Shown here: in pieces, positions 6,206 to 63,594 of the stretch
Numbering within the stretch: position 1 is the stretch's first letter
Layout of the letters: every line of letters begins with the position of its first letter
Assembly (NCBI GenBank): GCA_965603355.1
Contig: CBFDCQ010000001.1
Coordinates: 42,350-106,349 of the forward strand
From: an uncultured bacterium
GTDB lineage: Bacteria > Hydrogenedentota > CAZGCA01 > CBFDCQ01
DNA length: 64,000 nucleotides
Direction: 5' to 3'
Program-made: the position numbers and the translations under genes
Notes under the pieces: generated by a model
The model's database searches: none
What the model was told of the DNA's origin: nothing
The model's input: only the letters and a program-made list of their open reading frames with translations

Positions 6206-7250
6206 AGCAATGGAGATCACGTACGGTAACCTCAATTTCCTTTATCTGCTTTTCGCCGTAGCGGCTGTCGGCGCTCTGCTGCTCTGGTCCTTCATGCACA
6301 GACGCAGGCTCCTGGAGCGATTTACGGGCGAGGCGCTGGTCGGGAAGCTCGCGGTGGGGACCGACCCGCGCGGCTACAAGGTGAATGCTGTACTCCTTCT
6401 GGCGGGTATGACGTTTATTATATTGAGCCTGGTGGAGCCGAAATGGGGTTACCATATCGAACAAGTTCAGAGGCACGGTGTCGACATAGTGGTTGCCGTC
6501 GATACATCAAAGAGTATGCTGGCGGAAGACGTCAAGCCGAACAGGCTGGCTTATGCCAAGCGCGAGATCGAGGATCTTCTGAAGGTAATGCAAGGCGACA
6601 GAATAGCTATCGTCGCGTTCGCGGGGACGGCGTTCGCACAATGTCCGCTCACGCTCGATTACGCTTTTGCGCGGATGGTTCTCAACGACATCGACACCAG
6701 GTCCATTCCGCAGGGAGGCACTGCACTTGCAGAAGCGATACAGAAGTCGCTGGAGGCGTTTCAGGACCCTCTCAAGAAGCACAAGGCTATCATAGTCCTC
6801 ACGGACGGGGAGGACCACGAGGGATGGGTCGACACGGCGGCCCTGTTTGCCAAAGATGCGGGGGTGAACGTATATGTCGTAGGTATAGGCGAGCCTGAAG
6901 GTTCGCTTGTCCCTGTGCAGGACGAATCCGGTGCCCGGACGTATATCAAGGACGAGGGCGAACCGGTGCTCTCCAAGCTGAACGAGGAAATGCTTCACGA
7001 GATCGCCTTCGCGACCGGCGGGGCGTACGTTCACGGAGGAGGAGCGCGTTCCGCACTCCAGGACATATATGAGGAGTGGATTGTAGGGATGGAGAAGAAG
7101 GAACTGGCCAGCGGTGAGGTAAAGCGGTACGACAACCGTTATCAGATCCCTCTGGCGGCCGGTACCGTGCTTTTACTGTTGCAGCAGGGTTTTCTCGCAA
7201 GCCTGATAGAGGCAGGACGAAGGTCGCTGCGGTTGAAAAGAGCGGCGTAA
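6189..7250 (+). CDS. batB: VWA-domain protein BatB
   Basis: Two N-terminal TM helices and vWA motifs DTSKSM and LTDGEDHEG. Follows batA. Confidence 0.85.
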   Translation: MLGYHKAMEITYGNLNFLYLLFAVAAVGALLLWSFMHRRRLLERFTGEALVGKLAVGTDPRGYKVNAVLLLAGMTFIILSLVEPKWGYHIEQVQRHGVDIVVAVDTSKSMLAEDVKPNRLAYAKREIEDLLKVMQGDRIAIVAFAGTAFAQCPLTLDYAFARMVLNDIDTRSIPQGGTALAEAIQKSLEAFQDPLKKHKAIIVLTDGEDHEGWVDTAALFAKDAGVNVYVVGIGEPEGSLVPVQDESGARTYIKDEGEPVLSKLNEEMLHEIAFATGGAYVHGGGARSALQDIYEEWIVGMEKKELASGEVKRYDNRYQIPLAAGTVLLLLQQGFLASLIEAGRRSLRLKRAA

Positions 7251-47333: not shown

Positions 47334-50219
47334 CTATTTCGGACCGGCTTTGTCCTCGACTATGTCGCGCAGCGGTTGCCAATCCTTCGTGGTCTTGAGG
47401 CCTTCAGCAATCTCCCGGGTAGCGACCAGGTCGTCCTCCGAGCTTCTGAGGACGGTGGGCGTGATGAAGACGACGAGTTCCACTGTTTCGTGTATGGAAT
47501 CCTTCTTTCTGAACGGTATGCCGAGCACCGGGATATGGCCGAGTATCGGAACCCGCCGGATTTGCTCGGTGTCGGTATTTCGTACGATTCCACCGACGAC
47601 CATCGTGTCACCGCTCTTGACAGCCAGCTCCGTGTTGAACAGTCGCTTATCGATGACCGGGGCGCCTCCGATGTCCTCGCCCGCCCGAATCTGAGATGCT
47701 TCGAGTTCCACCTTCATTACCGCTTTGTCTATGTCGTTTATGTTCGGAGTGATTTTCAGCTTGGTCCCGGCCTCCTTCGGCGAGAACGACTGAGTCACGC
47801 CACCCTGTGGAGTCGCCTGACTGGTCGTGGGGTACAGGAACTCGGTCCCCGCAAATATGTCGCCCGGCTCGTTGTTGTTCATGACAAGAGTCGGCACTGC
47901 GAGGACGCGTGTATCAGAGTGGCGTTGCAGAAACTGAACCAGCAAGTTAACGCTGACATCGCCCCTGAGGATGGCGTTTCCGCGGATGTCCTCCCACGTT
48001 ACACCGAACGTGGACATCAGACCGTTATCAAAGTCGCTGCTCGAAAAGGCGCCCTGGCTCGAGCTGAACCGAGTGCCGATCCGAGATTCCCTGGTTGTTG
48101 TAATTTCGACCAGACGCACCCGGACCTGGACCTTCGGCGATTCGACATCAAGTTTCTGGATCAGTTCCTTCAGCAGTTCGAAATTCTGGACCGCGGTTGT
48201 AACGAGAAGAGAGTTGGTGCGCGTATCGGGTACGACACGGACCTGTCCGATCAGATTACTGATTGCGCGCTCCTCCTTCTTCTGCGGAGAGCCGTAGAGC
48301 CAGGCGAACTGCGTGCTTCGCGCCTCTTCCTCCTCAGTCTGACGTCTTTCGGGCATGCGAGCGCCCTCACGGGCAAACAGGCCATTCAGTTGGTCGGCGA
48401 CAGCGCTCGCCTTGGCGTTCTTCAGAGTCACAACCATCGTGTTGGCGGCATCGGGACTGAACTTGTCCAGATCCGTGATGAACTTACCAATTATCTTGAA
48501 GTTTTCCTTGTTATTCGTCGTCACAATGATCGAGTTGGTTGTGGTTTCAGGCACGAAACGCACTTTACCGTACAGCCTGCCCACCTCCTCCTTTGTGCCT
48601 CCGTACCGCCCGAACATATAGTCGTAATACCCACTGGTACCCGCCGTATCTTCCGCACCGAATATCTTATTCAAGACGTCGGTCATCTCCTTGGCGTCGA
48701 CGTAGCGTATCCGGAAGATGCGTGGAGCCACCTGCTCCGCATCGATCGGCTGATCGAGCTTTTCAATCAACTTGCTGATCTTCTCGAACTCGCTCGGCTT
48801 AGCTATTGCGATGACCGAGTTGGTACGACGTTCCGGGACAAACCGGGTCTTCGCCTGCTGCTGCCGCCGCGGGTAGTAAAACATCATGGAGTAATAGTCC
48901 TGCTGCATGCCGCTATAGAGGCTGTTCATCTGCTCGGAGATATCCTCGGCATCGGCGTATTCCAGCGGGTACGTCTTGGTCATAGTCTGGACCGACTCCT
49001 CGGTGTCCAGCTCGTCAACGACATCCTTGATCAGCGCGAAGTTCTCTGCCGAACTCAGCACCAGCAGAGAGCCCGAGCGGTCGTCGGCCGTGATCTCGAC
49101 CATATCCCGCACACGTTTTTCAGGGCGCCTCCTGAAGAGAGACGTTAGTTGCGACGCCAGGTCCCTGGCATCGGCGTACTTGAGCATCAGGGACCGCATC
49201 TGCAACTCCTGCGGTCGCGCTCTGTCGAGCTCATCGACAAGGCTCTTCGCTTTGCCGGTCAGCTCTTTCGGGACGACCACGACAAGCCAGTTCGCGGCCT
49301 TATACGGCACGACTTCCACCCCGCCGCCGCCCGGCGGCGCACCGCCCGGTTTGCCTGGCTGGGGTCTTCCGTCCGGCGGCTTGCCTTGTTTGGGCTTGCC
49401 CGGCTGTGCACCACCGGCCTTCTGCGCGAGCGCGCCGAGCACGGACTTAAGGATTGGCGCAATGGCTTCGGCATCGGCCTGCTTCAGCTCGAATATCTGC
49501 ACCTGCCTCTGATCGCTGGTCAGGACGTCCAGTTGCGCAACCACAGCTTCGATGTTAGCGACACGATTGGCGCTGTCAGTAACGATGATCTGTTTCGATG
49601 ACGGATGTGCCAACATCGACCCGGTCCCGCTCAAGAGCTCTTTGACGAGTTTCTCGATCTCCGCGACATCCGCGAATCGAATCGGTATGGATTTCCTGAC
49701 TATTCCCCCCGGCAGCTCTTCGACTCCTGCCGGCAGAAGTTCAACGACAGTCTCTTTGAGGAGCTCGGCGGGTATTAGTTTGATGGTGTCGTTGCTCGCG
49801 ACGACCGCCACCTTCTCCAGGAGCAATGCCTCACAAATCAGCGCAAACGCTTTCTCCTTGCTCACCTTCTCCGGGCTGAAGACGTTTAGTTGCGCCTTGA
49901 CGTCCTTATGTTTCACGACGAACTTGCCGGTGATCTCGGCTATGAATTTCACCACCTGGTCGACGGGTACGTTATTGAGATTCACTGGAACCTTGTCAGG
50001 GTCCGTCTCTTCAGCGGCGGCTTCCTCGGCCTCCGGGCTCTCCGGCAGGGCGGTTTCCGGGGTTTCCCCAGTCTCGTCGGCGGCAACCGCCTCGCTCTCA
50101 ACCTCACTCACCTCCTGAGCGAAGATAAGTGTGGGCGAAAGTGACAAGAACCAGGCCATTATCACGAACAGCACGCCAAATCGGTGGATGTTTCTTCTGG
50201 CACGTTTCATTGTTATCAC
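47334..50219 (-). CDS. gspD: type II secretion system secretin GspD
   Basis: 961 aa. Signal peptide, N0/N1-like repeats, a Pro/Gly-rich linker (PGKPKQGKPPDGRPQPGKPGGAPPGGGG), and the C-terminal secretin domain (VMVVGGIVRNTDTEQIRRVPILGHIPVLGIPFRKKD...VVFITPTVL). Confidence 0.9.
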   Translation of the reverse strand: MITMKRARRNIHRFGVLFVIMAWFLSLSPTLIFAQEVSEVESEAVAADETGETPETALPESPEAEEAAAEETDPDKVPVNLNNVPVDQVVKFIAEITGKFVVKHKDVKAQLNVFSPEKVSKEKAFALICEALLLEKVAVVASNDTIKLIPAELLKETVVELLPAGVEELPGGIVRKSIPIRFADVAEIEKLVKELLSGTGSMLAHPSSKQIIVTDSANRVANIEAVVAQLDVLTSDQRQVQIFELKQADAEAIAPILKSVLGALAQKAGGAQPGKPKQGKPPDGRPQPGKPGGAPPGGGGVEVVPYKAANWLVVVVPKELTGKAKSLVDELDRARPQELQMRSLMLKYADARDLASQLTSLFRRRPEKRVRDMVEITADDRSGSLLVLSSAENFALIKDVVDELDTEESVQTMTKTYPLEYADAEDISEQMNSLYSGMQQDYYSMMFYYPRRQQQAKTRFVPERRTNSVIAIAKPSEFEKISKLIEKLDQPIDAEQVAPRIFRIRYVDAKEMTDVLNKIFGAEDTAGTSGYYDYMFGRYGGTKEEVGRLYGKVRFVPETTTNSIIVTTNNKENFKIIGKFITDLDKFSPDAANTMVVTLKNAKASAVADQLNGLFAREGARMPERRQTEEEEARSTQFAWLYGSPQKKEERAISNLIGQVRVVPDTRTNSLLVTTAVQNFELLKELIQKLDVESPKVQVRVRLVEITTTRESRIGTRFSSSQGAFSSSDFDNGLMSTFGVTWEDIRGNAILRGDVSVNLLVQFLQRHSDTRVLAVPTLVMNNNEPGDIFAGTEFLYPTTSQATPQGGVTQSFSPKEAGTKLKITPNINDIDKAVMKVELEASQIRAGEDIGGAPVIDKRLFNTELAVKSGDTMVVGGIVRNTDTEQIRRVPILGHIPVLGIPFRKKDSIHETVELVVFITPTVLRSSEDDLVATREIAEGLKTTKDWQPLRDIVEDKAGPK

Positions 50220-53135: not shown

Positions 53136-54659
53136 CTATTCCAGTTCACGCCAATACCCAATCTTCACCTGATTCTCAGTTCGGTCAATAACGGCGCTAA
53201 CACAGCAGTACGTATTTCCGGTCCCAACAACGCCGAACGATCGGACATTGAATACGTCCGATCTGGCGCTAATGTGCGGCCATACCTCCTTGAATACCTC
53301 CAACGTTATCCCATCAACATCGAGCAGCTCTGCCTCCGTCTGGAAACCGGTCTTGCGCCCTTGTCGCGACTGTACAATCTGCCGCGCGAGAGCATCATCA
53401 AGCCCGGGCAGGCAAGCGAGCACTTCGCGGGGTGCGGTGTTGATGTTGACAACGCCTTTTCGCACTTCGCCCTCTGCCGTCGTTACCAGGTCGGCGATCT
53501 GCCGGAACTTTCCCATGTCGAAAGCTTTCTGGCCGGTTCCTTGCGTGGCCGTCTGCTGTTGTCTCTGTTCGCCGCGCCCAGCGCGTTCCGACTCATCCGG
53601 TTGCTCTGGCCTCGGCCGGCCGGGCTCCGACCGACTCTCAGGTTCCCCCTCGGTCTCCTCCTCCTCGTCGCCATTGCCCTCGGGCTTTTCCTCTTCTCCC
53701 CCAGCCTGAGGAGGCCCACCCCTCGGCCCTTCCCGTTCCGGCCCTCCCTCTCTTCTTTCTCTCCCGTCCGGCCTGTCCGGCTGCTCCTCGGGCTTTTTCT
53801 CCACGAGTTCGACATCCAGCAAGTCCACAATTGCGGCGAACTTGTTCTTCTCACGATGCGCCACGATGGACTCGGCTTCCTGAGAGGATATGCCGGTTAC
53901 CGATTTGGCGATATCCTCCGCGCCGGCGCTATTCAGGTCGACACGTTTGTTTCCGTCGGCGGTGACGTTGCGTGCCGCGGACCACGTCGTGAGATACGCC
54001 GTAAGGCCCTCGTCGAGCACGCCGTCAGCGTCGTCCGGCGGCCAACTCTGGTCACCGTCATTCTCGTTCGGGTCAAGAAGACCGTTACTGTTCTGATCCT
54101 CACCATACAATACAAGAAAGTCAACGTTCTCAAGCAGGAGCAAGTCATTCAAATCGTGAAGCTCTTCCTGCTTTCTCAGGGCCAATATCCCGGCCACAAG
54201 ATCCGCATCCATCCTGGGCACCACGTCCAATATCGACTCCTCTGCGGTATTCACATTGATCTTCGCCGCTTCGTCCCCAATACCATAGACCGGCTCGCCG
54301 GCAGTATCCATTCCCACGTAAAGAGTGTACGATCCGTCGCCAAGCTCGACGTTCTGGTAGACGCGCGTCTGGCTTTCCCGGAGGTCCGCCTGTGCTTGCA
54401 CCTTGTTCCTCCCTTCAACCAACTCGGCGATAGTCCTCTCCACGCCTGCTCGAGCCAGGAATAGGGCCTTTGCAGCACCGCTCGTGCTTGCCGTCACCTG
54501 CATGCGGAGGTGCGACGAGAACTTCAGCTCCAGGGCCACCGCGCAAAGGATCGCCATAATCCAGAGCACGAACACCAACGCCATACCGCGCTCGGACGGC
54601 CCTCTATTGAGCCATGATCGGGACCGTTGTATTGAACACCATCGGGTTTTCGATCTCAT
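53136..54659 (-). CDS. gspK: T2SS minor pseudopilin GspK
   Basis: GspK N-terminus ERGMALVFVLWIMAILCAVALEL, large periplasmic domain, and C-terminal helix-hairpin-helix-like segments (NINTAPREVLACLPGL). The start was trimmed to an internal Met. Confidence 0.65.
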   Translation of the reverse strand: MRSKTRWCSIQRSRSWLNRGPSERGMALVFVLWIMAILCAVALELKFSSHLRMQVTASTSGAAKALFLARAGVERTIAELVEGRNKVQAQADLRESQTRVYQNVELGDGSYTLYVGMDTAGEPVYGIGDEAAKINVNTAEESILDVVPRMDADLVAGILALRKQEELHDLNDLLLLENVDFLVLYGEDQNSNGLLDPNENDGDQSWPPDDADGVLDEGLTAYLTTWSAARNVTADGNKRVDLNSAGAEDIAKSVTGISSQEAESIVAHREKNKFAAIVDLLDVELVEKKPEEQPDRPDGRERREGGPEREGPRGGPPQAGGEEEKPEGNGDEEEETEGEPESRSEPGRPRPEQPDESERAGRGEQRQQQTATQGTGQKAFDMGKFRQIADLVTTAEGEVRKGVVNINTAPREVLACLPGLDDALARQIVQSRQGRKTGFQTEAELLDVDGITLEVFKEVWPHISARSDVFNVRSFGVVGTGNTYCCVSAVIDRTENQVKIGYWRELE

Positions 54660-55218
54660 CTTCGTCCACCACAACAATCTGAATGCGCACTGCTTTGGGA
54701 AAACCCGGTTTCTCTTGCCAACCGGACTCCCAATACAGCCCGTCATAGAATTCCAGGTTAAGCTCGGACACTTGCGGGCCGGCGAGCGAGACCGCACCTC
54801 CCTCAAGCGGGTCGTCGTCAAGCGAGCCGTCCTCCCGGCGCAGCAACCACTGTGCGTCGGTTTTGGAATCGTTCTCAACATAATAGCCTATCTCGCAACG
54901 GCCGCTCACGCCGGGTTCCCCCTTGGCCAGTCGTACCCGGTCGGCGGCGACAAAATCAAGCGTATCGGCGGTCAGGCCTTCGAACTCGGCATCAAGTGAG
55001 GTCATTTGAGTATTGCCGTGTTCGACGGCCGCGCGGATGTCGGTAGCCATCGCCTGGAGCGCCGCCTGTCCGTGGGTTATCATAGCGCCGTAACGCCTGG
55101 CTTTCGCCGCCGATCGAGTCCCCGTAGTAAGGGCTGCGAATCCAGCTGCCGCCAGGAGCGCCAACATGCTCGTAGTGACGAGTAATTCAACAAGTGTAAA
55201 GCCGCGTCGAAACCTCAT
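54604..55218 (-). CDS. gspJ: T2SS minor pseudopilin GspJ-like
   Basis: Prepilin motif MRFRRGFTLVELLVTTSMLALL. Its ATG overlaps the gspI stop (ATGA). The track ORF is longer because it lacks an upstream stop. Confidence 0.65.
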   Translation of the reverse strand: MRFRRGFTLVELLVTTSMLALLAAAGFAALTTGTRSAAKARRYGAMITHGQAALQAMATDIRAAVEHGNTQMTSLDAEFEGLTADTLDFVAADRVRLAKGEPGVSGRCEIGYYVENDSKTDAQWLLRREDGSLDDDPLEGGAVSLAGPQVSELNLEFYDGLYWESGWQEKPGFPKAVRIQIVVVDEDEIENPMVFNTTVPIMAQ

Positions 55219-55598: not shown

Positions 55599-56167
55599 AA
55601 GAGCACCTCTCTGCCGCGTACCTCGCCGGTGGCACCGAGAATATTGATCTCAAAACGCTCGCCACGCATACTCGTCAGCTCAATCAGTGCATCTTCCGTT
55701 CCACCGTCGCTCCGGAACGTTATTACCTCCCAGGGTTGGGACTCAGCGGTACTGAAGGGAGATGCCTCTCCGCGGGTGACGATCAGTTGGGTTCCCTCCG
55801 GCAGTTCCATAGTCGCCAGGGTTTGCGTCTCCGACTCATTTGGCTCAGCCAACCACGGCAACGAGCTCCTGTACGCCGAAACCCAACACAATCTCCGGCC
55901 GGCATCGAGATTAACAACCACAGGTCGGTGCCGTGTCACGGCGGACATGTACGCGAAGTTCAGAACCTCACAAACCTGATTGCCCGTTCTCCTGAATCCG
56001 GTCCCTCGCAAAGCGGCAGCAATCGAAGGCACGATCATGGCGGAAAACATCGATATGATGACCAGCACCACCATCAACTCGATGAGCGTGAAACCGCGCA
56101 CCGGTCTTGCTCCATTTCCGCAGCCGTCGGTCCGGATTTCGAAACGACTAATACTCTTCACCTTCAA
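55595..56167 (-). CDS. gspH: T2SS minor pseudopilin GspH-like
   Basis: RGFTLIELMVVLVIISMF prepilin motif. The start codon is uncertain (TTG or GTG alternatives). Confidence 0.65.
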   Translation of the reverse strand: MKVKSISRFEIRTDGCGNGARPVRGFTLIELMVVLVIISMFSAMIVPSIAAALRGTGFRRTGNQVCEVLNFAYMSAVTRHRPVVVNLDAGRRLCWVSAYRSSLPWLAEPNESETQTLATMELPEGTQLIVTRGEASPFSTAESQPWEVITFRSDGGTEDALIELTSMRGERFEINILGATGEVRGREVLL

Positions 56168-56612
56168 TCTCCACCCAGCTGACTACATCGGCGTTCTCGC
56201 CCTCTCCGCCTTCTTCGCCGTCCCTGCCACACGACATGACCTCGTACGGCAGCGCCGAATGCGTGCCGGGACTATCGTAGATGTAAGGATTGCCCCATGG
56301 ATCGTTCGGTATCGGTTTCTTCGAATACGGTCCCTTCCACTTCTCCGTTTCTTCATCGGGCCTAAAATAGAGGACTCGCAAGCCCTCCTCCGGGCTCGGG
56401 TATCGGTCCATATCAAGATAGTACTGATCGAGTAGGCTCTCGATCATAGCTATGTCGGTTTGCGCCTTGGTCCGCATGGCACCTTCCTTCTTCCCGACAA
56501 CGTTGGGGAGAATTGTCACCGCAAGTATGGCGAGTATTGCCAGAACGACCAAGAGCTCGATCAACGTAAACGCGCTTTCTGCCCGACGTCTTTCTCTTCT
56601 CATAGTTTTCAC
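56148..56612 (-). CDS. gspG: T2SS major pseudopilin GspG
   Basis: FTLIELLVVLAILAILA N-terminus and the GspG C-terminal signature DPWGNPYIYDSPG...CGRDGEEGGEGENADVVSW. Residue -1 of the cleavage site is Ala (ESA|FTLIE). Confidence 0.9.
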   Translation of the reverse strand: MKTMRRERRRAESAFTLIELLVVLAILAILAVTILPNVVGKKEGAMRTKAQTDIAMIESLLDQYYLDMDRYPSPEEGLRVLYFRPDEETEKWKGPYSKKPIPNDPWGNPYIYDSPGTHSALPYEVMSCGRDGEEGGEGENADVVSWVEIEGEEY

Positions 56613-57947: not shown

Positions 57948-59618
57948 CTACCGTCCGTCGTCAAAATCGTCGAACTGCTCCTCCATTTGAGTAGCCCGTA
58001 TTACCTCCTCCGGGGTTGTGATGCCCCGAACGACCTTCAGCCAGCCAGCCTCACGCATGCTCTGCATTTTGCCGGCCACCTGCTGGCGAATAGCCGACGC
58101 CGACGCCCGTTGCAGGACAAGGTCCCGAAGGTTATCATCAACGAGCAGTAACTCCAGGATAGCCGTTCGGCCGCGATAGCCTGTACCGTTGCAGTCAGAG
58201 CAGCCCTCGCCGCGATACAGGATCACCTCCTCCTCTGCATTCAGTTCGCGCCTGATCTGCGCGAGTTGTGCTTCGCTTGGCTCGACTCTCTCACCGCAGG
58301 CAGAGCACACTTTGCGCACGAGCCGCTGCCCCAGGATGCCGCGCACCGCCGAGGCGATTAGATACGGCTGCACGCCCATATCCAGAAGTCGCGCGATCGA
58401 CTCGGGGGCGTCATTGGTGTGCAGAGAGCTGAGTACAAGGTGGCCGGTCAGCGCGGAGCGAATGGCGATCTCCGCCGTCTCGCTGTCGCGTATCTCCCCG
58501 ACCATGATGACATCGGGGTCCTGCCGGACGATCGAGCGTATCCCGGTCGCAAAGGTTAAACCTCTCTTGGGCCTCACCGGAATCTGGTTGACACCCACCA
58601 GCTCGTACTCAACCGGATCCTCGATGGTGATGAACTTGCGCTCAGTCGTGAAGATCGCGGTTAGCGACGCGTAGAGAGTTGTGGTCTTGCCGCAGCCGGT
58701 CGGTCCGCACACAAGCACTATACCGTGCGGGTTTCGCAGGAGACGACTGAACCGCGCGAGCGTCCCTTCCTCGAATCCCAACCCCTCCAACCCGAAAAGG
58801 AACGATGTCTTATCCAAGAGGCGGAGCACGATACACTCGCCGTATATTGTCGGGATCGTGGCGACACGCACATCTACCTCGCGTCCCTCGAAGTTGAGCT
58901 CAATGTGCCCGTCCTGAGGAATATAACGTTCCGCGATGTTCATGTCGGCCATGATCTTGACGCGTGAGATAATAGCGTCCTGCAAGTGTTTCGGCGGAGC
59001 GGGCATCTCGTGCAGCACACCGTCGATGCGGTACTTGACTTTCAGCATGTTTTCGAACGGTTCGAGGTGAATGTCGCTCGCCCGGTCGCGGATGGCCCTC
59101 ACGACAATGAGGTTGACCAGGTTGACGACCGTGGGCTCGCTCGCGATCTCCCGGAGGTGACCGACCTGCGCATTGTCCGCGGCGTCCTCCTCGGGTACCT
59201 CGAGGTGCTTTATCATCCTCTCCACCGAGAAACCGTAGAAGGTCTGCATCGCGGCCTCCATATCGCTCTCGGTACAGATGGCACGGTCGATATCCTTGCC
59301 GGTGAGTATATGAATGTGGTCCACGGTTTGGAAGTCGAACGGGTTCTCCATAGCCAGAAGAAGATTGCCGTCAATCTGAGCGACAGGTATGACGCGCGCT
59401 TTGTGGATGAGTTCGGAAGGTATGTCGGTCGCGGCCGTCCGGTCAATCTCCGTCTCGGACAGCTCCAGGAAACGGATCTGCAGGGTCTCCGCGAGCGCCT
59501 CCAGGGCGCTCTTCTCGTCCGGCCAGCCCAGCGCCGTCAGACACCGCCCGAGACTCTCACCGGTGCGGCGAAAACGATCCAGCGCCTTATGAAGCACCTC
59601 CTCGGAAAGCTTGCTCAA
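57948..59618 (-). CDS. gspE: T2SS ATPase GspE
   Basis: N1 and N2 domains, Walker A GPTGCGKTT, Asp and His boxes, and a C-terminal tetracysteine (CSACG...CSDCNGTG). TTG start. Confidence 0.9.
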   Translation of the reverse strand: MSKLSEEVLHKALDRFRRTGESLGRCLTALGWPDEKSALEALAETLQIRFLELSETEIDRTAATDIPSELIHKARVIPVAQIDGNLLLAMENPFDFQTVDHIHILTGKDIDRAICTESDMEAAMQTFYGFSVERMIKHLEVPEEDAADNAQVGHLREIASEPTVVNLVNLIVVRAIRDRASDIHLEPFENMLKVKYRIDGVLHEMPAPPKHLQDAIISRVKIMADMNIAERYIPQDGHIELNFEGREVDVRVATIPTIYGECIVLRLLDKTSFLFGLEGLGFEEGTLARFSRLLRNPHGIVLVCGPTGCGKTTTLYASLTAIFTTERKFITIEDPVEYELVGVNQIPVRPKRGLTFATGIRSIVRQDPDVIMVGEIRDSETAEIAIRSALTGHLVLSSLHTNDAPESIARLLDMGVQPYLIASAVRGILGQRLVRKVCSACGERVEPSEAQLAQIRRELNAEEEVILYRGEGCSDCNGTGYRGRTAILELLLVDDNLRDLVLQRASASAIRQQVAGKMQSMREAGWLKVVRGITTPEEVIRATQMEEQFDDFDDGR

Positions 59619-60168
59619 GACACGTTCTCCCGGCCCTCCCCCGTGTTGCGGCTAAGTCCCTTGGCGCGTCTTAAGGCGACGTTTGCAGCGCGGAACGCGG
59701 AAGACCACTCGCGAGCCGCCCTGACAACATCCCCCCATTATATGTATAACGTCCGAGCCGGCGATTTCTTGGCACTAATGTACTATTCCGTCGGTTATGG
59801 CAGTACCGACGGCGAAACTGCCAAATCCAGCAGGTCGCACATATCCCGGAACTGTACTATAGCACCAGCACAGCGCCCTGTCAACAGTAAAAGGAGCACT
59901 GCTCTGTCAAAAAAAACCCTCGGTATAGGGTATCTGTATATAGTAACGCCAGTAAGTGCCCTTATGTTTACACGTTAGAGCTTTCTTTGCCATCGTACCT
60001 CAGCAATATCTTCTGCGCCGCTGCGCTCCGTCGACGCTTGAAGGTCTACACCACTCTATACTACGCACACCTTCTCCATAAGTTCATATGACATATATGG
60101 GATCGAACGATCAAAAGAAAAGTTCCGCGTCGCGGGTCACGGGCAGTATCCTGTGCCACATCCGGGAG

Positions 60169-61587
60169 TCAGCGGCTGGAACGCCAGACGATATCTCCCT
60201 CGCGCGCATCCGGTTTGCCACCGTCGTCAACCAGGTTGACGGACACACTGTACAAGACGAAGCCCTCGCTCTCCTTGCGGTAAAGATAGGGTGCGCCGGT
60301 GAAAGGGTCGACAGGCAATTCTTGAATGTACTCGGGCACGATCGCGTCGAGCTTTTCCGGGTATGAGCCGGTCTTCTTCTTTAACTGCTTCAAGTATATC
60401 GCCATTTCAGCAAGGTCGCACTGAACTACGATCCTATCCTGTGCAGGCAGCGCCCGCGAGAAAGCCGGTACGGTTGTGCGGGTAGCTACCTTGAGTTTTG
60501 AGATTGTGCTGACCTCATCCCCCAGCTCTTTGAGGGCAAGTCGCGATTCATACGATGGTACAGCCGCAAACTCTATTACTCTCGGCATGTACTTCAAATA
60601 TGCCTCCTCGTCCACAAGACGAAACGGCCGCCCTACATAGCTTGCGCCCATGAGCTGGCGGTCGCGCGCCAGGAAAAAGCACAATTCGCCTTGCAGACCC
60701 CCTGCAAAGGGCCTTCTGTCGCGCAGTTCATCGAGCTCCGCGATAATCTCGCGCAAACGTTCGTCGGGTAGATAACCTTCCTCCAGCGTCTCGTACATGG
60801 CGCCGATAGCAATTCCCCCTATCGCCATCCGGACTAACTGGGTAATGAGCAGCGGTTCCCTCTTGAGAGCGTTTGCTATATGGAGTCCCGCAGAAATCAG
60901 CTCGGAAGCTTCTTTCATATTGCCCTCGCGCGCTTCAAGAATCGCCGCGTCTCCCACGTACCGCGCAAGGGCACGCATTCTCGCCAGATGGGGCAGAATT
61001 GACCGCGAGGCTGCGTCCACTCCGATGTCATAGTCCACGAGCATCTGTGCCTGGTCCAACGCACGAGCATCCTTAACCACCTGGAGGCCAGGTTCCATCT
61101 TCGTGAATATGTGCCGGGCGGCAATCTCGATTTCTCTGCCGTCCACCTCGACACCCGACTGGACCTTCTCGAGATACTTTGTCGCTGCCTCAACTCCACG
61201 CTCGTACTCATGTCCTACAGCCCGTGACCGCTCCCTCTCCGACATCATGGAACTCCTCGGCAAGGTGTGAAACGCGGTGTAGACATCGTACCCCAGACCG
61301 TCGTATTCTGCCAGAACGGGCCCCATGATTGACAGAGCGTACGAGTAATGTATCATGGCATTCTTCTGGTCGGACAAGAGTTCACCAACCAGCTCGGAAA
61401 ACGTCATGGCACCGCCCGCTTCCCTGATCTCGGCGATCTTGCTCTCGACACGTCTCTGCAGCACTAAGGTAAGTGCCGTATCTAAGATCAGAAGGACTAT
61501 CAGGACGACGACTACGATGAGGGCGCCTCGTTTCGCCCACCGCAGGAATGTCGGGAACGACCTCTTCACCCAGTTTCGTTGTTCCAT
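60169..61587 (-). CDS. membrane-anchored protein with a GspG-like (T2SS_G) C-terminal domain
   Basis: N-terminal TM helix (RGALIVVVVLIVLLILDTAL), about 380 aa of helical periplasmic region, and the C-terminus LPVDPFTGAPYLYRKESEGFVLYSVSVNLVDDGGKPDAREGDIVW, which parallels the GspG fold signature DPWGNPY.Y...G.DG..GG...DI..W. Confidence 0.55.
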   Translation of the reverse strand: MEQRNWVKRSFPTFLRWAKRGALIVVVVLIVLLILDTALTLVLQRRVESKIAEIREAGGAMTFSELVGELLSDQKNAMIHYSYALSIMGPVLAEYDGLGYDVYTAFHTLPRSSMMSERERSRAVGHEYERGVEAATKYLEKVQSGVEVDGREIEIAARHIFTKMEPGLQVVKDARALDQAQMLVDYDIGVDAASRSILPHLARMRALARYVGDAAILEAREGNMKEASELISAGLHIANALKREPLLITQLVRMAIGGIAIGAMYETLEEGYLPDERLREIIAELDELRDRRPFAGGLQGELCFFLARDRQLMGASYVGRPFRLVDEEAYLKYMPRVIEFAAVPSYESRLALKELGDEVSTISKLKVATRTTVPAFSRALPAQDRIVVQCDLAEMAIYLKQLKKKTGSYPEKLDAIVPEYIQELPVDPFTGAPYLYRKESEGFVLYSVSVNLVDDGGKPDAREGDIVWRSSR

Positions 61588-62027
61588 GGGTTCTTATTCT
61601 CCATAAGGCCCTCGATCCACACGTCTCGGTTCTGTCGGGCTGTGCTCGTGGCCCTGAACGACGACCCGGCACCCGACCGGCTCAGCGACCGGGCGAAGTA
61701 CTCTTCAATTTCTACTGTATAATCACCGTCCAGCGTCTCGGCAAGTTCTCGCGCCAGTTCCCTCGCCGTGGCATCGACCTCGCGAGCCGCTGCGGGTGAG
61801 TGAATCATCCGCTGGAGCCGTTTGGACGAGGCTCGGTCCGCCCCGAACGCGATAATGACGACAACCCCCAGAGCTGCAAAGGCGACCTTCAGTGCAGGAT
61901 TGTACCTCTGGTGTGCCCAACGCTCCGCTCTCTCCGGTGCGGCGGCCAGCAAACGCTCACGAACCGCATGAGCCGGTTTTGGCAGCGCGAACCTTTTGAG
62001 CAGTTCCTCCATCCGTTCGTTCTTCAC
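61566..62027 (-). CDS. putative anti-sigma factor (single TM helix, no zinc motif)
   Basis: Immediately downstream of the ECF sigma gene with a 4-nt overlap. Cytoplasmic N-terminal segment, then TM helix VAFAALGVVVIIAFG. Confidence 0.45.
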   Translation of the reverse strand: MKNERMEELLKRFALPKPAHAVRERLLAAAPERAERWAHQRYNPALKVAFAALGVVVIIAFGADRASSKRLQRMIHSPAAAREVDATARELARELAETLDGDYTVEIEEYFARSLSRSGAGSSFRATSTARQNRDVWIEGLMENKNPWNNETG

Positions 62028-62569
62028 CTTTCGTCACCTAATAGCAGCTTAAGTTTATCCAGCGCGTACCTGTACCGGCTGGCGGCGGTATTCGGAGACG
62101 CACGGACCACCGTTCCAATCTCCCTGAACGTCATTCCATGGAAGATCTTCAGTACTACAACCTCCCTCTGCTTCGTAGGCAGTTCTTGCAGCGCTGCATT
62201 CACCCGGTCAACATCCTCTCTCTCGATCTCCTCTCCCGATGCCGGGTTCAGCAGACTTGCCTGTTGGCTCAGTACCTCCCCAGCACGCTCCCGAACGTTT
62301 CGGCGACGCAGTCGGCTGAACGCCTCGTTGCGCGCCGCGCGGAACAGGTACGCCTCCGCGTTTCTCAATTGCGAGTACTTCCTCCGCTTCGACAGGAGCC
62401 TCGCAAACAGTTCTTGCAGCGCGTCTTCAGCCTCTTCGGGCGAGCAAAGCAGTGCGAACAGGTAGCCGTAAAGCGCACTCCCGTACGCATCGTAAAACGT
62501 TCTCAGCTCTTCCATCCACTTATCGTCGACTAACCGACGCTGCGGAGGTCCCGCCCGTCCACTGCTCAA
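62024..62569 (-). CDS. ECF-type RNA polymerase sigma factor (sigma-70 family group 4)
   Basis: Region 2 (ALYGYLFALLCSPEEAEDALQELFARL) and region 4 HTH (ELPTKQREVVVLKIFHGMTFREIGTVV). 181 aa. Confidence 0.85.
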   Translation of the reverse strand: MSSGRAGPPQRRLVDDKWMEELRTFYDAYGSALYGYLFALLCSPEEAEDALQELFARLLSKRRKYSQLRNAEAYLFRAARNEAFSRLRRRNVRERAGEVLSQQASLLNPASGEEIEREDVDRVNAALQELPTKQREVVVLKIFHGMTFREIGTVVRASPNTAASRYRYALDKLKLLLGDER

Positions 62570-62915
62570 ATTTCCCCTGCCTCCATAGGAAAAGACGCAT
62601 CTGGTCGCGGAATTTGTCTGAAAAAGTGTTCGATCCCCCTAGATCACGTGAAAAAAGCGCTGAGAACAAGAGTGCTGAGGCCCCCCAGTCACGTCATTCT
62701 GAGCGCAGCGAAGAATCTCACTCTTCCCATGACATAACTGATGGTAGTGTGGATTGACCGGCAGTGTCAAGGAACCGCGCTCTCCGCATCGGGTGTCCCA
62801 AGAGGTCATGCCTCGACCACGGAAGCGGCCGCCGGAACGTTAGCCCCCTGAGAACGCCGGGAACCGCGCTCTGGAGTAAACACATTGCTATTGATGAAAA
62901 AGTGCGAATATTCCC

Positions 62916-62944
62916 TTGACAAATGTCTGCGAACAGGTTAGAAT
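62916..62944 (+). promoter_or_regulatory. near-consensus sigma-70 promoter
   Basis: TTGACA, a 17 nt spacer, then TAGAAT, with an AT-rich UP-like stretch (attgatgaaaaagtgcgaatatt) just upstream. Points toward the recombinase remnant, which starts about 150 nt downstream. Confidence 0.5.
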
Positions 62945-63099
62945 ATTAGGGTTGCACCACGGAGGGCTTTCTCGTACGTCTCTCGGTGCGCATATCAAGG
63001 GGGGGAATTCGAGTTCGATAGATGGACCGCCGGGACAGTGCAGTTGGCTACTGCGAGTGGGATAAGTTAGCTGAGGCTTGATCGGGTTCGAGCGTAGGG

Positions 63100-63594
63100 G
63101 TGGAAACCATGGGCGTACAGACGAAGACAAGCGTTACCGAAGCGGCTGAGAGAGCGGCGAGAAGGGCGGCATCTCACGGGTTGAAAGTCAAGCGGGGGCA
63201 ACTCAACGCGGTTCAGCGCGGATGTTACGGGACCGGCCCGGCTCCGTTCGGGTATCGAAGGACCAAGGATGGCGAACGTTCTCTCGAACCTGACGACATA
63301 GAGTCCGGTATTGTAGAACGCATCTTCCGGGAGTACCTGAGGATGAAGAGCACCGGCAAGGTAGTCAAGCTGCTTAACTCGGAGAACATACCAACCCGCA
63401 AGGGAAACAAGTGGTCGCGCCAGGCTGTCTCAATTATCCTCACAAATCGCACGTACCGTGGACGTGTTCGTTACGGCGACCTCGATATTCGCGGGCAACA
63501 CGACCCTATAGTCGAGGCGTCCGTTTTCTATAAAGCGAATGCTCTTAAGCGGAAGAGGAGCCGAAGGCGAAAGCGCACCGAGGCCGCCACGTAG
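63100..63594 (+). pseudogene. large-serine-recombinase remnant (central 'Recombinase' domain only; catalytic resolvase domain and C-terminal zinc-ribbon region absent)
   Basis: PF07508-like region (GYRRTKDGE...IVERIFREYL...KVVKLLNSENIPTRKGNKWSRQAVSIILTNRTYRGRV). No upstream frame encodes a YxRVSTxxQ catalytic domain. Confidence 0.55.

Follow-up and report, generated by a model that had tools for sequence, protein, structure and literature searches.

Why are an ECF sigma factor, a small single-pass membrane protein and a 472-aa protein with a GspG-like C-terminus encoded directly beside a T2SS operon? The initial annotation of this locus, which lies in a 64,000-nt stretch of DNA analysed as a whole (the window), had proposed that the 472-aa protein senses pseudopilus assembly or that the trio regulates the adjacent secretion genes. 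The present study suggests that the trio probably functions as an autonomous and autoregulated ECF module, independent of the T2SS, its adjacency to the T2SS being lineage-specific. All three minus-strand ORFs were confirmed with unchanged coordinates. The features of the module and its surroundings, in the direction of transcription, are the following:

62741..62770, minus strand: promoter-like site of sigma-70 type, TTGACA-18-TACCAT, lying upstream of the sigma gene (consensus scan).
62588..62620, minus strand: conserved ECF-type promoter motif CAGACAAAT-N14-CGTC-TTTTCC, the presumed autoregulated promoter (nine-lineage conservation, PWM).
62024..62569, minus strand: ECF-type sigma factor, 181 aa, TTG start (Sigma70_r2 and Sigma70_r4_2, TIGR02937).
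61566..62027, minus strand: single-pass membrane protein of 153 aa, occupying the anti-sigma position (ORF, 4-nt overlap with the sigma gene).
60169..61587, minus strand: 472-aa protein with an N-terminal TM helix, an all-alpha solenoid and a C-terminal GspG-like domain (ORF, AF2, family profile).
61456..61527, minus strand: TM helix of the 472-aa protein, residues ~21-44, preceded by the predicted basic cytoplasmic tail MEQRNWVKRSFPTFLRWAKRG (sequence reading).
60172..60456, minus strand: C-terminal T2SSG-like (pseudopilin head) domain, residues 378-472 (profile, hhalign, AF2 and Foldseek).
60125..60142, minus strand: terminator-like hairpin, 27 nt past the stop codon of the 472-aa gene (consensus scan).
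59856..59884, minus strand: sigma-70-type promoter TTGACA-17-TATAGT with a TG extended -10, ~240 nt upstream of gspE and outside the module (consensus scan).

The identification of the first gene product as an ECF sigma factor was borne out. It matches Sigma70_r2 over residues 25-91 (E=4.9e-13) and Sigma70_r4_2 over residues 123-173 (E=1.4e-9), and scores 80.7 bits with TIGR02937 against a cutoff of 42.9. With the sigma2 and sigma4 regions only and a length of ~180 aa, it is a group 4 (ECF) sigma factor. At the sigma stop codon, the sigma gene and the start of the 153-aa gene have 4 nt in common, and the 153-aa and 472-aa genes share 22 nt. These overlaps, both of which are also kept in orthologues of the trio, suggest that the three genes are co-transcribed. 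ECF sigma/anti-sigma modules are a well-known kind of system. An Rfam search of 59500..63100 returned no matches, and none of the three proteins matched a defence system in PADLOC.

In at least nine lineages, whose labels span several phyla, the three genes are kept together as a unit; the trio was recovered from either starting point, the large protein or the sigma factor. Orthologues of the 472-aa protein at 55-60% protein identity occur with the trio in L002-L005. In L018 (labelled Aminicenantes), L020, L021 (Verrucomicrobiia) and L023, the sigma gene is followed by a gene for a 140-185-aa TM protein and then by a member of the large protein's family, with overlapping frames. For the reverse search three sigma homologues were chosen for their identity and the length of their contigs: P0179 (71%), P0193 (56%, from a 7.9-Mb genome) and P0185 (52%). 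In all three cases (3/3) the next two genes encode a protein of 130-161 aa and a family member. Across the other lineages, the sigma homologues heading the same trio show 40-71% identity. That the trio behaves as one unit is supported by these data.

In 9/9 lineages the motif AGACAAAT-N14-CGTC lies a short distance before the sigma gene; its cross-lineage form is A[GA]A[CT]AAAT-N14-[CA]GTC (~21 bits). In the window the site ends 19 nt before the sigma start codon, with the CGTC itself 25 nt before it. A PWM scan of the 64-kb window gave 33.5 bits for the real site as the sole strong match, the next best being 13.3 bits; the maximum in the shuffled-sequence control was 17.1 bits. As expected of an ECF sigma factor, a conserved predicted promoter precedes the factor's own gene in all nine lineages, and the motif is probably an autoregulated ECF promoter. 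The TTGACA-18-TACCAT site farther upstream is conserved in L002, L003 and L056. The three genes probably form a self-contained signalling cassette, which recurs, together with a promoter motif of its own, in several bacterial phyla. This -35/-10 pair is distinctive and cross-phylum, and we did not find it described in the searchable literature. With it, the regulon can be predicted wherever a complete genome contains the trio.

For the second gene, which the initial annotation had called a putative anti-sigma factor, the small single-pass protein is indeed in the right position, but an anti-sigma domain was not found. The protein has an N-terminus of ~45 aa, predicted to be cytoplasmic, a single TM helix spanning about residues 47-66, and ~90 aa past the membrane. 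It gave no significant match in Pfam or NCBIfam, anti-sigma domains included, the best being CU044_5270 at E=0.018. Class I anti-sigma factors carry an ASD, a helical bundle of ~80 aa, often with HxxxCxxC. The 153-aa protein does not conform to this class, because it has no zf-HC2/RskA-type match and its cytoplasmic segment of ~45 aa has no Cys/His motif. Nevertheless, its gene position directly 3' of the sigma gene, the overlap and the single TM helix are all conserved across lineages, and the middle proteins of L002, L003, L018, L021 and L023 share the same architecture and an N-terminal motif, E.LL.R..P.P....R..L..A. These features make the protein a putative anti-sigma factor. It would be an unusually short one, a feature we did not find described in the searchable literature.

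The N-terminus of the 472-aa protein is a single hydrophobic helix, reading MEQRNWVKRSFPTFLRWAKRGALIVVVV. The AF2 model (pLDDT 81, pTM 0.81) places a long helix over residues 11-56 and an alpha1C-like helix at 367-406, with ~310-330 residues of helical repeats between the latter and the TM helix. By the positive-inside rule the protein would have an N-in topology; it is the charge distribution only that suggests a periplasmic orientation. The basic tail, which would be cytoplasmic, is conserved among close orthologues. Against the PDB, full-length Foldseek gave weak helical-repeat matches only (14-3-3, TPR, designed repeats; E>=0.14), and whole-protein profile searches gave only GspG and TcpA, with weak E-values.

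This protein belongs to a very large family. An exhaustive profile search returned 51,364 clusters, defined at 50% identity, at E<=1e-3 and 6,723 at E<=1e-30, members being mostly ~450 aa long; it corrected a word-index homologue search, whose 13 relatives were a gross underestimate of family size. The 472-aa protein aligns over its full length with the family profile, shares the motifs LPHL..R..ARLL, EP.LISQLVR, LPYYE, PVDPFTG.PY.Y, DDGG and GDIVW, and is 23-32% identical, full length, to 39 family representatives. The family had no name in any source searched and no Pfam or NCBIfam model. Most members are without sigma linkage, and many stand in tandem arrays of 2-7 paralogues (up to 7 copies in L010; 4-5 in L006, L008, L009 and L012), which argues that the fold has a function of its own. 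The family carries a pseudopilin head domain outside any filament context; we did not find such a partner protein described in the searchable literature, and the family merits a curated domain model.

How might such a module work? In the arrangement we propose, the ECF sigma factor would be held at the inner membrane by the 153-aa protein, acting as an anti-sigma factor through its ~45-aa N-terminus. The 472-aa protein, anchored by its one N-terminal helix, would hold its alpha-solenoid and its non-polymerising GspG-type head in the periplasm, where it could work with the anti-sigma factor's periplasmic part as a partner or sensor. A periplasmic signal would then alter the contact between these two proteins and free the sigma factor, which would transcribe from AGACAAAT-N14-CGTC promoters, that of its own operon first. 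The sensor or partner role of the 472-aa protein specifically is put forward tentatively.

Two known systems offer analogies. In Cupriavidus metallidurans, CnrH/CnrY/CnrX form a three-component ECF system with a very short single-pass anti-sigma factor that has no class I domain and, in the same operon, a membrane-anchored periplasmic helical protein, CnrX, a 148-aa metal sensor. The present trio likewise combines an ECF sigma factor, a short single-pass putative anti-sigma factor and a membrane-anchored helical protein in one operon. However, no sequence or fold relationship with the Cnr proteins was found, the partner here is a 472-aa solenoid with a pilin-like head, and the gene order differs. 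With RpoE/RseA/RseB and class I modules, the trio shares an autoregulated operon, as predicted here, with a sigma factor, a single-pass (here putative) anti-sigma factor and a periplasmic accessory protein, whereas the 153-aa protein has no detectable zf-HC2/RskA domain and the third protein is unrelated to RseB and membrane-anchored. By analogy with CnrX-CnrY-CnrH or RseB-RseA-RpoE, the two membrane proteins may be in contact, and a sensor role for the 472-aa protein, rather than that of a regulated output, is suggested.

Two observations run against a three-component model: an anti-sigma domain was not detectable in the 153-aa protein, and most family members are not sigma-linked.

Since the fold appears to have its own function in a mostly sigma-free family, the 472-aa protein could equally be a regulated product: an envelope protein induced as third gene through the autoregulated operon promoter, while the sigma and anti-sigma factors sense something else. 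The huge family with its frequent tandem arrays agrees with this, as does the finding that the only cognate promoter match in the window drives the operon itself. On the other side, its reading frame tightly overlaps that of the anti-sigma-like gene, an arrangement kept across phyla, which fits co-production of both proteins, as for partners in one complex, and close orthologues keep the basic tail; neither point is decisive. We regard the regulated-output explanation as rather unlikely. A more speculative possibility is that the thousands of tethered GspG-head proteins are a so far unrecognised class of periplasmic receptors of the state of pilin/pseudopilin fibres or of free subunits, and that the sigma-linked subfamily relays this to an ECF factor acting on AGACAAAT-N14-CGTC sites. 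We consider it a long shot; if true, transcription would be linked to the assembly of T2SS or type IV filaments even without gene adjacency.

The model of the initial annotation, in which the GspG-like head monitors T2SS pseudopilus assembly and the ECF sigma factor regulates the adjacent T2SS, is very unlikely. Two of its starting points are sound: a complete gspE-F-G-H-I-J-K-L-M-C-D-type operon does lie beyond the trio, after a 550-nt gap (59619..60168), and the C-terminal domain is homologous to GspG. However, the trio adjoins a T2SS only in the window, in L058 (the same organism) and in a contig ~91% identical in DNA (L056/L057), that is, in one of about nine trio lineages. There is no T2SS adjacency in L002-L005, nor in L062, L059 and L060, which carry the 71%, 56% and 52% sigma homologues, nor in L018, L020 and L023; in L021, a further point in favour, only a gspF-like gene lies 1.6 kb away, on the opposite strand. 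Conservation of the trio beside T2SS genes in related genomes did not hold up beyond contigs ~91% identical in DNA. The T2SS-regulation link is therefore not supported, and the trio seems to have come to lie beside secretion genes by chance in this lineage.

The gap itself speaks against the monitoring model as well. The conserved motif of the sigma gene is absent from it, the best PWM score being -4.9 bits against 33.5 at the real site. The gap has its own TTGACA-17-TATAGT promoter, which agrees with the consensus at 11/12 positions; L056 has almost the same site, differing at one spacer position, in a contig ~91% identical throughout. Between the 472-aa gene and this gspE-side promoter there are two hairpins that resemble terminators; since the terminator-like scan found 4 sites against 3.2 expected, the hairpin at 60125..60142 is weak evidence by itself. 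The GAAC/CGTC-type -35/-10 element that the initial annotation had proposed to look for in the gap came down to a single GAAC-N16-CGTA at 60085. It can be counted for the monitoring model, but such a match is within chance (0.06-0.15 expected per gap), its distance to gspE is 470 nt and it bears no resemblance to the conserved motif. The generic ECF consensus GAAC-N15-18-CGT[CA] was set aside as uninformative, with 1 match in the gap and 34 in the window. The gap upstream of gspE was also considered as a constrained non-coding element and dropped, the whole region being 90-92% identical between the window and L056. The ECF factor should thus not be assigned to T2SS regulation from adjacency. 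An autonomous module is favoured by the conserved trio, the motif in all nine lineages, the kept overlaps, the T2SS having its own sigma-70-like promoter and the lineage-limited adjacency, and also by the common architecture and N-terminal motif of the middle proteins.

The resemblance of the C-terminus to GspG is genuine, as the initial annotation had claimed, but it extends over ~90 residues and not 45. On sequence comparison, the single-sequence match is weak: BLASTP against the window's true GspG (TIGR01710 at 1.4e-41) gave 7/15 identities only (E=0.068), Pfam T2SSG (PF08334) gave E=0.053 and 14 bits, below its 21-bit cutoff, and phmmer against the PDB had GspG 2kep as its top match (E=0.031). 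Family profiles raise the match to significance over ~70-90 residues, the long helix among them. For 2kep, the family profile gave E=3.8e-6 (chain residues 10-104), GspG being the sole PDB match below 0.4, and hhalign with the window's GspG gave E=1.5e-4 over 67 columns. A C-terminal HMM, built with the window protein left out, was run against 534 stop-to-stop segments of the window and found the 472-aa ORF (3.3e-36) and GspG (4.5e-4) and nothing further, the next best being 1.3. T2SSG is also the sole recurrent Pfam match in the family (9/11 and 18/40 members). The head domain, modelled by AF2 at pLDDT 86, is made up of a long helix, an alpha-beta loop and a sheet of three strands, and carries the motifs PVDPFTGxPYxY and N..DDGG......GDIVW. 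Its top four Foldseek matches in the PDB were all pilins (among them the type IV pilins 4d40, prob 0.96, TM 0.55-0.58, and 6t8s), at E ~0.1. That the resemblance is a chance short motif (DPxxGxPYxY) without a common fold is highly improbable: the BLASTP, Pfam and Foldseek scores would allow it, but the profile matches are significant and specific, the alignment takes in the helix and the C-terminal D..W segment, and the four best structural matches are all pilins. The head domain is thus homologous to the GspG domain, yet the curated threshold would not annotate it.

In detail, the last ~90 residues align with the soluble domain of T2SS GspG (XcpT 2kep; PulG/OutG) through an alpha1C-type helix, the YP..L loop, the P.DPxG.PY.Y and LYS.G strands, the acidic Gly-rich loop and the terminal D-[IV]-x-W. 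The acidic loop is ~3 residues longer than in GspG. In PulG/OutG, the calcium-binding Asp pair is D117 and D125 of the beta2-beta3 loop (PMC13081927). In the 2kep profile alignment, N451 and D465, kept in the family, align with the two calcium-binding Asp of GspG; N451, D454, D455 and D465, 78-90% conserved in the family, align to the calcium loop, where the AF2 pLDDT is 37.

In contrast to GspG, the 472-aa protein has no prepilin leader, Glu5 or alpha1N, and its head ends a 380-residue TM and solenoid protein, so it cannot polymerise in the usual way. The statement of the initial annotation that it is not a pseudopilin and has no GFTLIE-type leader agrees with our results: no N_methyl (PF07963) or TIGR02532 match was found at E<=1, the sequence has no G|FTLIE leader, Gly(-1) or Glu5 motif, and the AF2 model does not show the alpha1N continuous with alpha1C on which polymerisation depends. 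Its T2SSG-like head and hydrophobic N-terminal helix might suggest a pseudopilin in aberrant or fused form that is processed and incorporated into the pseudopilus. This is scarcely credible, being already contradicted by these sequence features, by the long solenoid that parts the TM helix from the alpha1C-like helix and by the conservation of this architecture in thousands of clusters. The gene should therefore not be named a pseudopilin or T2SS component.

Pilin-derived domains also occur in the prepilin-type DUF1559 (SBP_bac_10)/H-X9-DG proteins. Those proteins have a true prepilin N-terminus and a DUF1559 body, whereas the 472-aa family has neither. Genes with N_methyl and SBP_bac_10 lie on the same contigs as family members in L002 and L006.

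The coordinates and gene calls that the initial annotation gave for the sigma trio proved correct. A complete type II secretion system (T2SS) operon lies downstream of the trio, across a 550-nt gap, with H, I, J, K, L-like, M and C-like genes, in that order, between gspG and the secretin gene.

Trio, promoter-like sites and T2SS landmarks in the window
62770..62741, minus strand: sigma-70-type promoter-like site, TTGACA-18-TACCAT, in a conserved island upstream of the sigma gene
62620..62594, minus strand: window copy of the motif from the nine-lineage comparison, CAGACAAAT-TCCGCGACCAGATG-CGTC
62569..62024, minus strand: ECF-type sigma factor, 181 aa, with Sigma70_r2 and Sigma70_r4_2 domains, passing the ECF superfamily model TIGR02937
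62027..61566, minus strand: 153-aa ORF with GTG start, overlapping the sigma stop codon by 4 nt
61587..60169, minus strand: 472-aa ORF, overlapping the 153-aa ORF by 22 nt
59884..59856, minus strand: near-consensus promoter, TTGACA-17-TATAGT, extended -10, in the gap before gspE
59618..57948: gspE, first gene of the T2SS operon
56612..56148: gspG, after gspF
50219..47334: secretin gene, last of the T2SS operon

The trio is a conserved module, present in at least nine lineages. Around the close orthologues P0002-P0007 (53-62% identity), it is kept with the same overlaps, as sigma, ~150-aa gene and ~500-aa gene. At four further loci (L018, L020, L021, and L023), an ECF sigma with 40-50% identity to that of the window stands two genes upstream of a more distant member of the 472-aa family; where ORFs were listed (L018, L021, and L023), a 140-185-aa single-pass protein stands between the two. 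An independent test from the sigma side used three homologues, chosen for their identity and the length of their contigs: P0179 (71% identity), P0193 (56%, in a 7.9-Mb NCBI genome), and P0185 (52%), and in all three a 130-161-aa gene comes next, followed by a family member. The middle proteins of the trios can be aligned; N-terminal and C-terminal motifs are common to them, as is the single TM helix.

Two conserved islands lie upstream of the sigma gene among orthologues, one carrying the sigma-70-type site and the other directly ahead of the sigma ribosome-binding site. Comparison of the second island across nine lineages yielded the common motif A[GA]A[CT]AAAT-N14-[CA]GTC (~21 bits; chance probability in 220 nt of ~1e-4 per locus). 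Its layout is that of an ECF promoter with CGTC as the -10 element, and we interpret it as a candidate autoregulated cognate promoter of the sigma. The PWM derived from these nine sites scored 33.5 bits at the sigma-upstream site, at most 13.3 elsewhere in the 64-kb window, and up to 17.1 in shuffled sequence.

The best-supported reading, which we hold to be fairly probable, is an autonomous, autoregulated three-component ECF module with no relation to the T2SS. The initial annotation had proposed that the 472-aa protein senses T2SS pilus assembly or regulates the adjoining secretion genes. Binding of pseudopilin partners by a GspG-type head is conceivable in principle, and adjacency in one lineage is the sole positive evidence for such a sensor; the link to the secretion genes is unsupported. 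The cognate motif was not found in the gap upstream of gspE (59619..60168; best PWM score -4.9), and the single generic GAAC-N16-CGTA there, at 60085, is no more than chance would give (0.06-0.15 expected per gap; the window has 34 such sites). Two terminator-like hairpins separate the 472-aa gene from the near-consensus promoter. The initial annotation had itself suggested this promoter check, and its outcome is negative for direct control of the T2SS operon. No T2SS lies beside the trio in L002-L005, where sugar-nucleotide genes and a convergent enolase-superfamily gene flank it, nor near the P0179, P0193, and P0185 sigma loci (0/3). Adjacency is limited to the window, the identical contig L058, and L056/L057 (90-92% DNA identity throughout), and thus reflects synteny by recent descent. 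In L021, a gspF-like gene occurs 1.6 kb downstream on the opposite strand.

The 153-aa protein is a putative anti-sigma, having the right position and topology. Pfam and NCBIfam searches found no class I anti-sigma domain in it, so it would be of a short type, which we take to resemble CnrY. For the 472-aa protein, we tentatively propose a membrane-anchored periplasmic partner or sensor; this role is favored because, across phyla, its reading frame keeps the overlap with the anti-sigma-like gene. Its main rival, that the protein is a mere regulated product of the operon, draws on the occurrence of most of the family without a sigma, and we regard it as rather unlikely.

No Pfam or NCBIfam family was assigned to the 472-aa protein, and neither search found a prepilin/N-methylation motif. 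AlphaFold2, with a 12-sequence alignment as input, gave a confident model (pLDDT 81, pTM 0.81). In it, residues 11-56 form a long helix at the N-terminus, hydrophobic from ~21 to 44; an all-alpha repeat domain follows, up to ~residue 360, and a long helix (367-406) then packs on three short strands. From the basic tail ahead of the TM helix, the predicted topology is N-in, placing most of the protein in the periplasm. Residues 1-20 (61528..61587, minus strand) include a tail, MEQxNWVKRSFPTF(I/L)R, nearly invariant among the sigma-linked close orthologues and missing from distant members, which have just a short basic stretch at the start; one possible role is as a cytoplasmic contact site particular to the sigma-linked subfamily.

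The GspG resemblance of the C-terminus, observed in the initial annotation, is real at the profile level, and extends over ~90 residues, twice the length first given. Single-sequence matches were weak: BLASTP against the window GspG gave E=0.068, Pfam T2SSG E=0.053 (under cutoff), and phmmer against PDB ranked GspG 2kep first at E=0.031. A C-terminal profile of 11 sequences matched XcpT/GspG 2kep at E=3.8e-6 (next match 0.47), from the alpha1C helix through the acidic loop, and hhalign against the window GspG gave E=1.5e-4 over 67 columns. Of the window's 534 stop-to-stop segments, a C-terminal HMM from 128 other family members matched only the 472-aa ORF (3.3e-36) and GspG (4.5e-4). T2SSG was also the sole recurrent Pfam family among members (9/11 and 18/40). 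Residues 378-472, modeled separately with AF2 (pLDDT 86), had type IV pilins as the four best PDB matches: 4d40 (prob 0.96, TM 0.55-0.58) and three chains of 6t8s, with E-values of only ~0.1, as expected for 95 residues. Two aspartates are calcium ligands in PulG and OutG (PMC13081927). N451 and D465, conserved across the family, align with them as a putative site in a low-confidence loop of the AF2 model.

A word-index search returned only 13 relatives, whereas 1.84 billion representatives, searched exhaustively with a profile, gave 51,364 clusters at E<=1e-3, 33,527 at E<=1e-10, and 6,723 at E<=1e-30; some in the weakest tier may be true pseudopilins matched through the C-terminal part only. 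Nearly all of the best 150 matches are 430-490 aa and aligned end to end. The consensus carries LPHL..R..ARLL, EP.LISQLVR.A, LPYYEA, and AQARHEA.LDL...GLALE.Y....G.YP..LD...P.....PVDPFTG.PY.Y.....F.LYSVG.N..DDGG......GDIVWR. Members examined had no name beyond "hypothetical protein" and no Pfam match except sub-threshold T2SSG; genome-derived relatives come from MAGs labeled Hydrogenedentota, Planctomycetota, Verrucomicrobiia, Aminicenantes, and others. A literature search found no paper on the family, nor on an ECF module whose partner is pilin-like. An ECF sigma with anti-sigma and accessory protein is an already known kind of system; for the partner family, the short anti-sigma-like protein, and the promoter motif here, there appears to be no earlier description.

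In the sampled loci, most other family members lack sigma linkage, and many stand in tandem arrays of 2-7 paralogues. Head-to-tail arrays of 3-7 paralogues (450-aa family) without any sigma gene occur in L010 (2047..12055), L006, L008, L009, L012, and L035; several are in one MAG (CAZGCA01), which has no fewer than five loci. The arrays suggest diversification of a binding module. P0125 (836 aa) is fused to a C-terminal 7-bladed lactonase beta-propeller, and the fused or much longer members include P0038, P0054, P0055, and P0092 (861-924 aa), with several matched stretches; hence, the GspG-like head is not always C-terminal.

The gap before gspE also holds a 28-aa ORF (MAKKALTCKHKGTYWRYYIQIPYTEGFF; 59907..59993, minus strand) with a GAGG ribosome-binding site, the GAAC-N16-CGTA match ahead (60062..60085, minus strand), and a hairpin plus T8 run behind (59916..59931, minus strand). 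In L056 the hairpin is weaker and the ORF end different; the region may give rise to a small transcript or be of no significance. Directly after the 472-aa stop codon, L056 has a 210-nt insertion (6480..6690), missing from the window, with two strong hairpins, both GC-rich (GGGGAGACC...GGTCTCCC and GGGAGGGT...ACCCTCCC); it resembles a small repeat or an element of the MITE type.

Just past the right end of the window, the same contig carries a second sigma trio (L001 5191..7281). Its ECF sigma shares 32% identity with the first, its anti-sigma (216 aa) is of the zf-HC2 type, and its third product, a coiled-coil-like protein of 276 aa, has no relation to the 472-aa family. Directly upstream of the first trio, adjoining a DUF6812 gene, an isolated 161-164-aa ORF (63100..63594, plus strand; L001 7994..8479) has 'Recombinase' (PF07508) as its sole domain; it looks like a serine recombinase remnant and is the point where synteny with orthologous trios stops. 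Within the T2SS operon, the GspK-like protein (53136..54881, minus strand; HHH_3 and T2SSK) has a long low-complexity insert of ~90 aa, rich in E/R/P/G (...EKKPEEQPDRPDGRERREGGPEREGPRGGPPQAGGEEEKPEG...), which is unusual for GspK.
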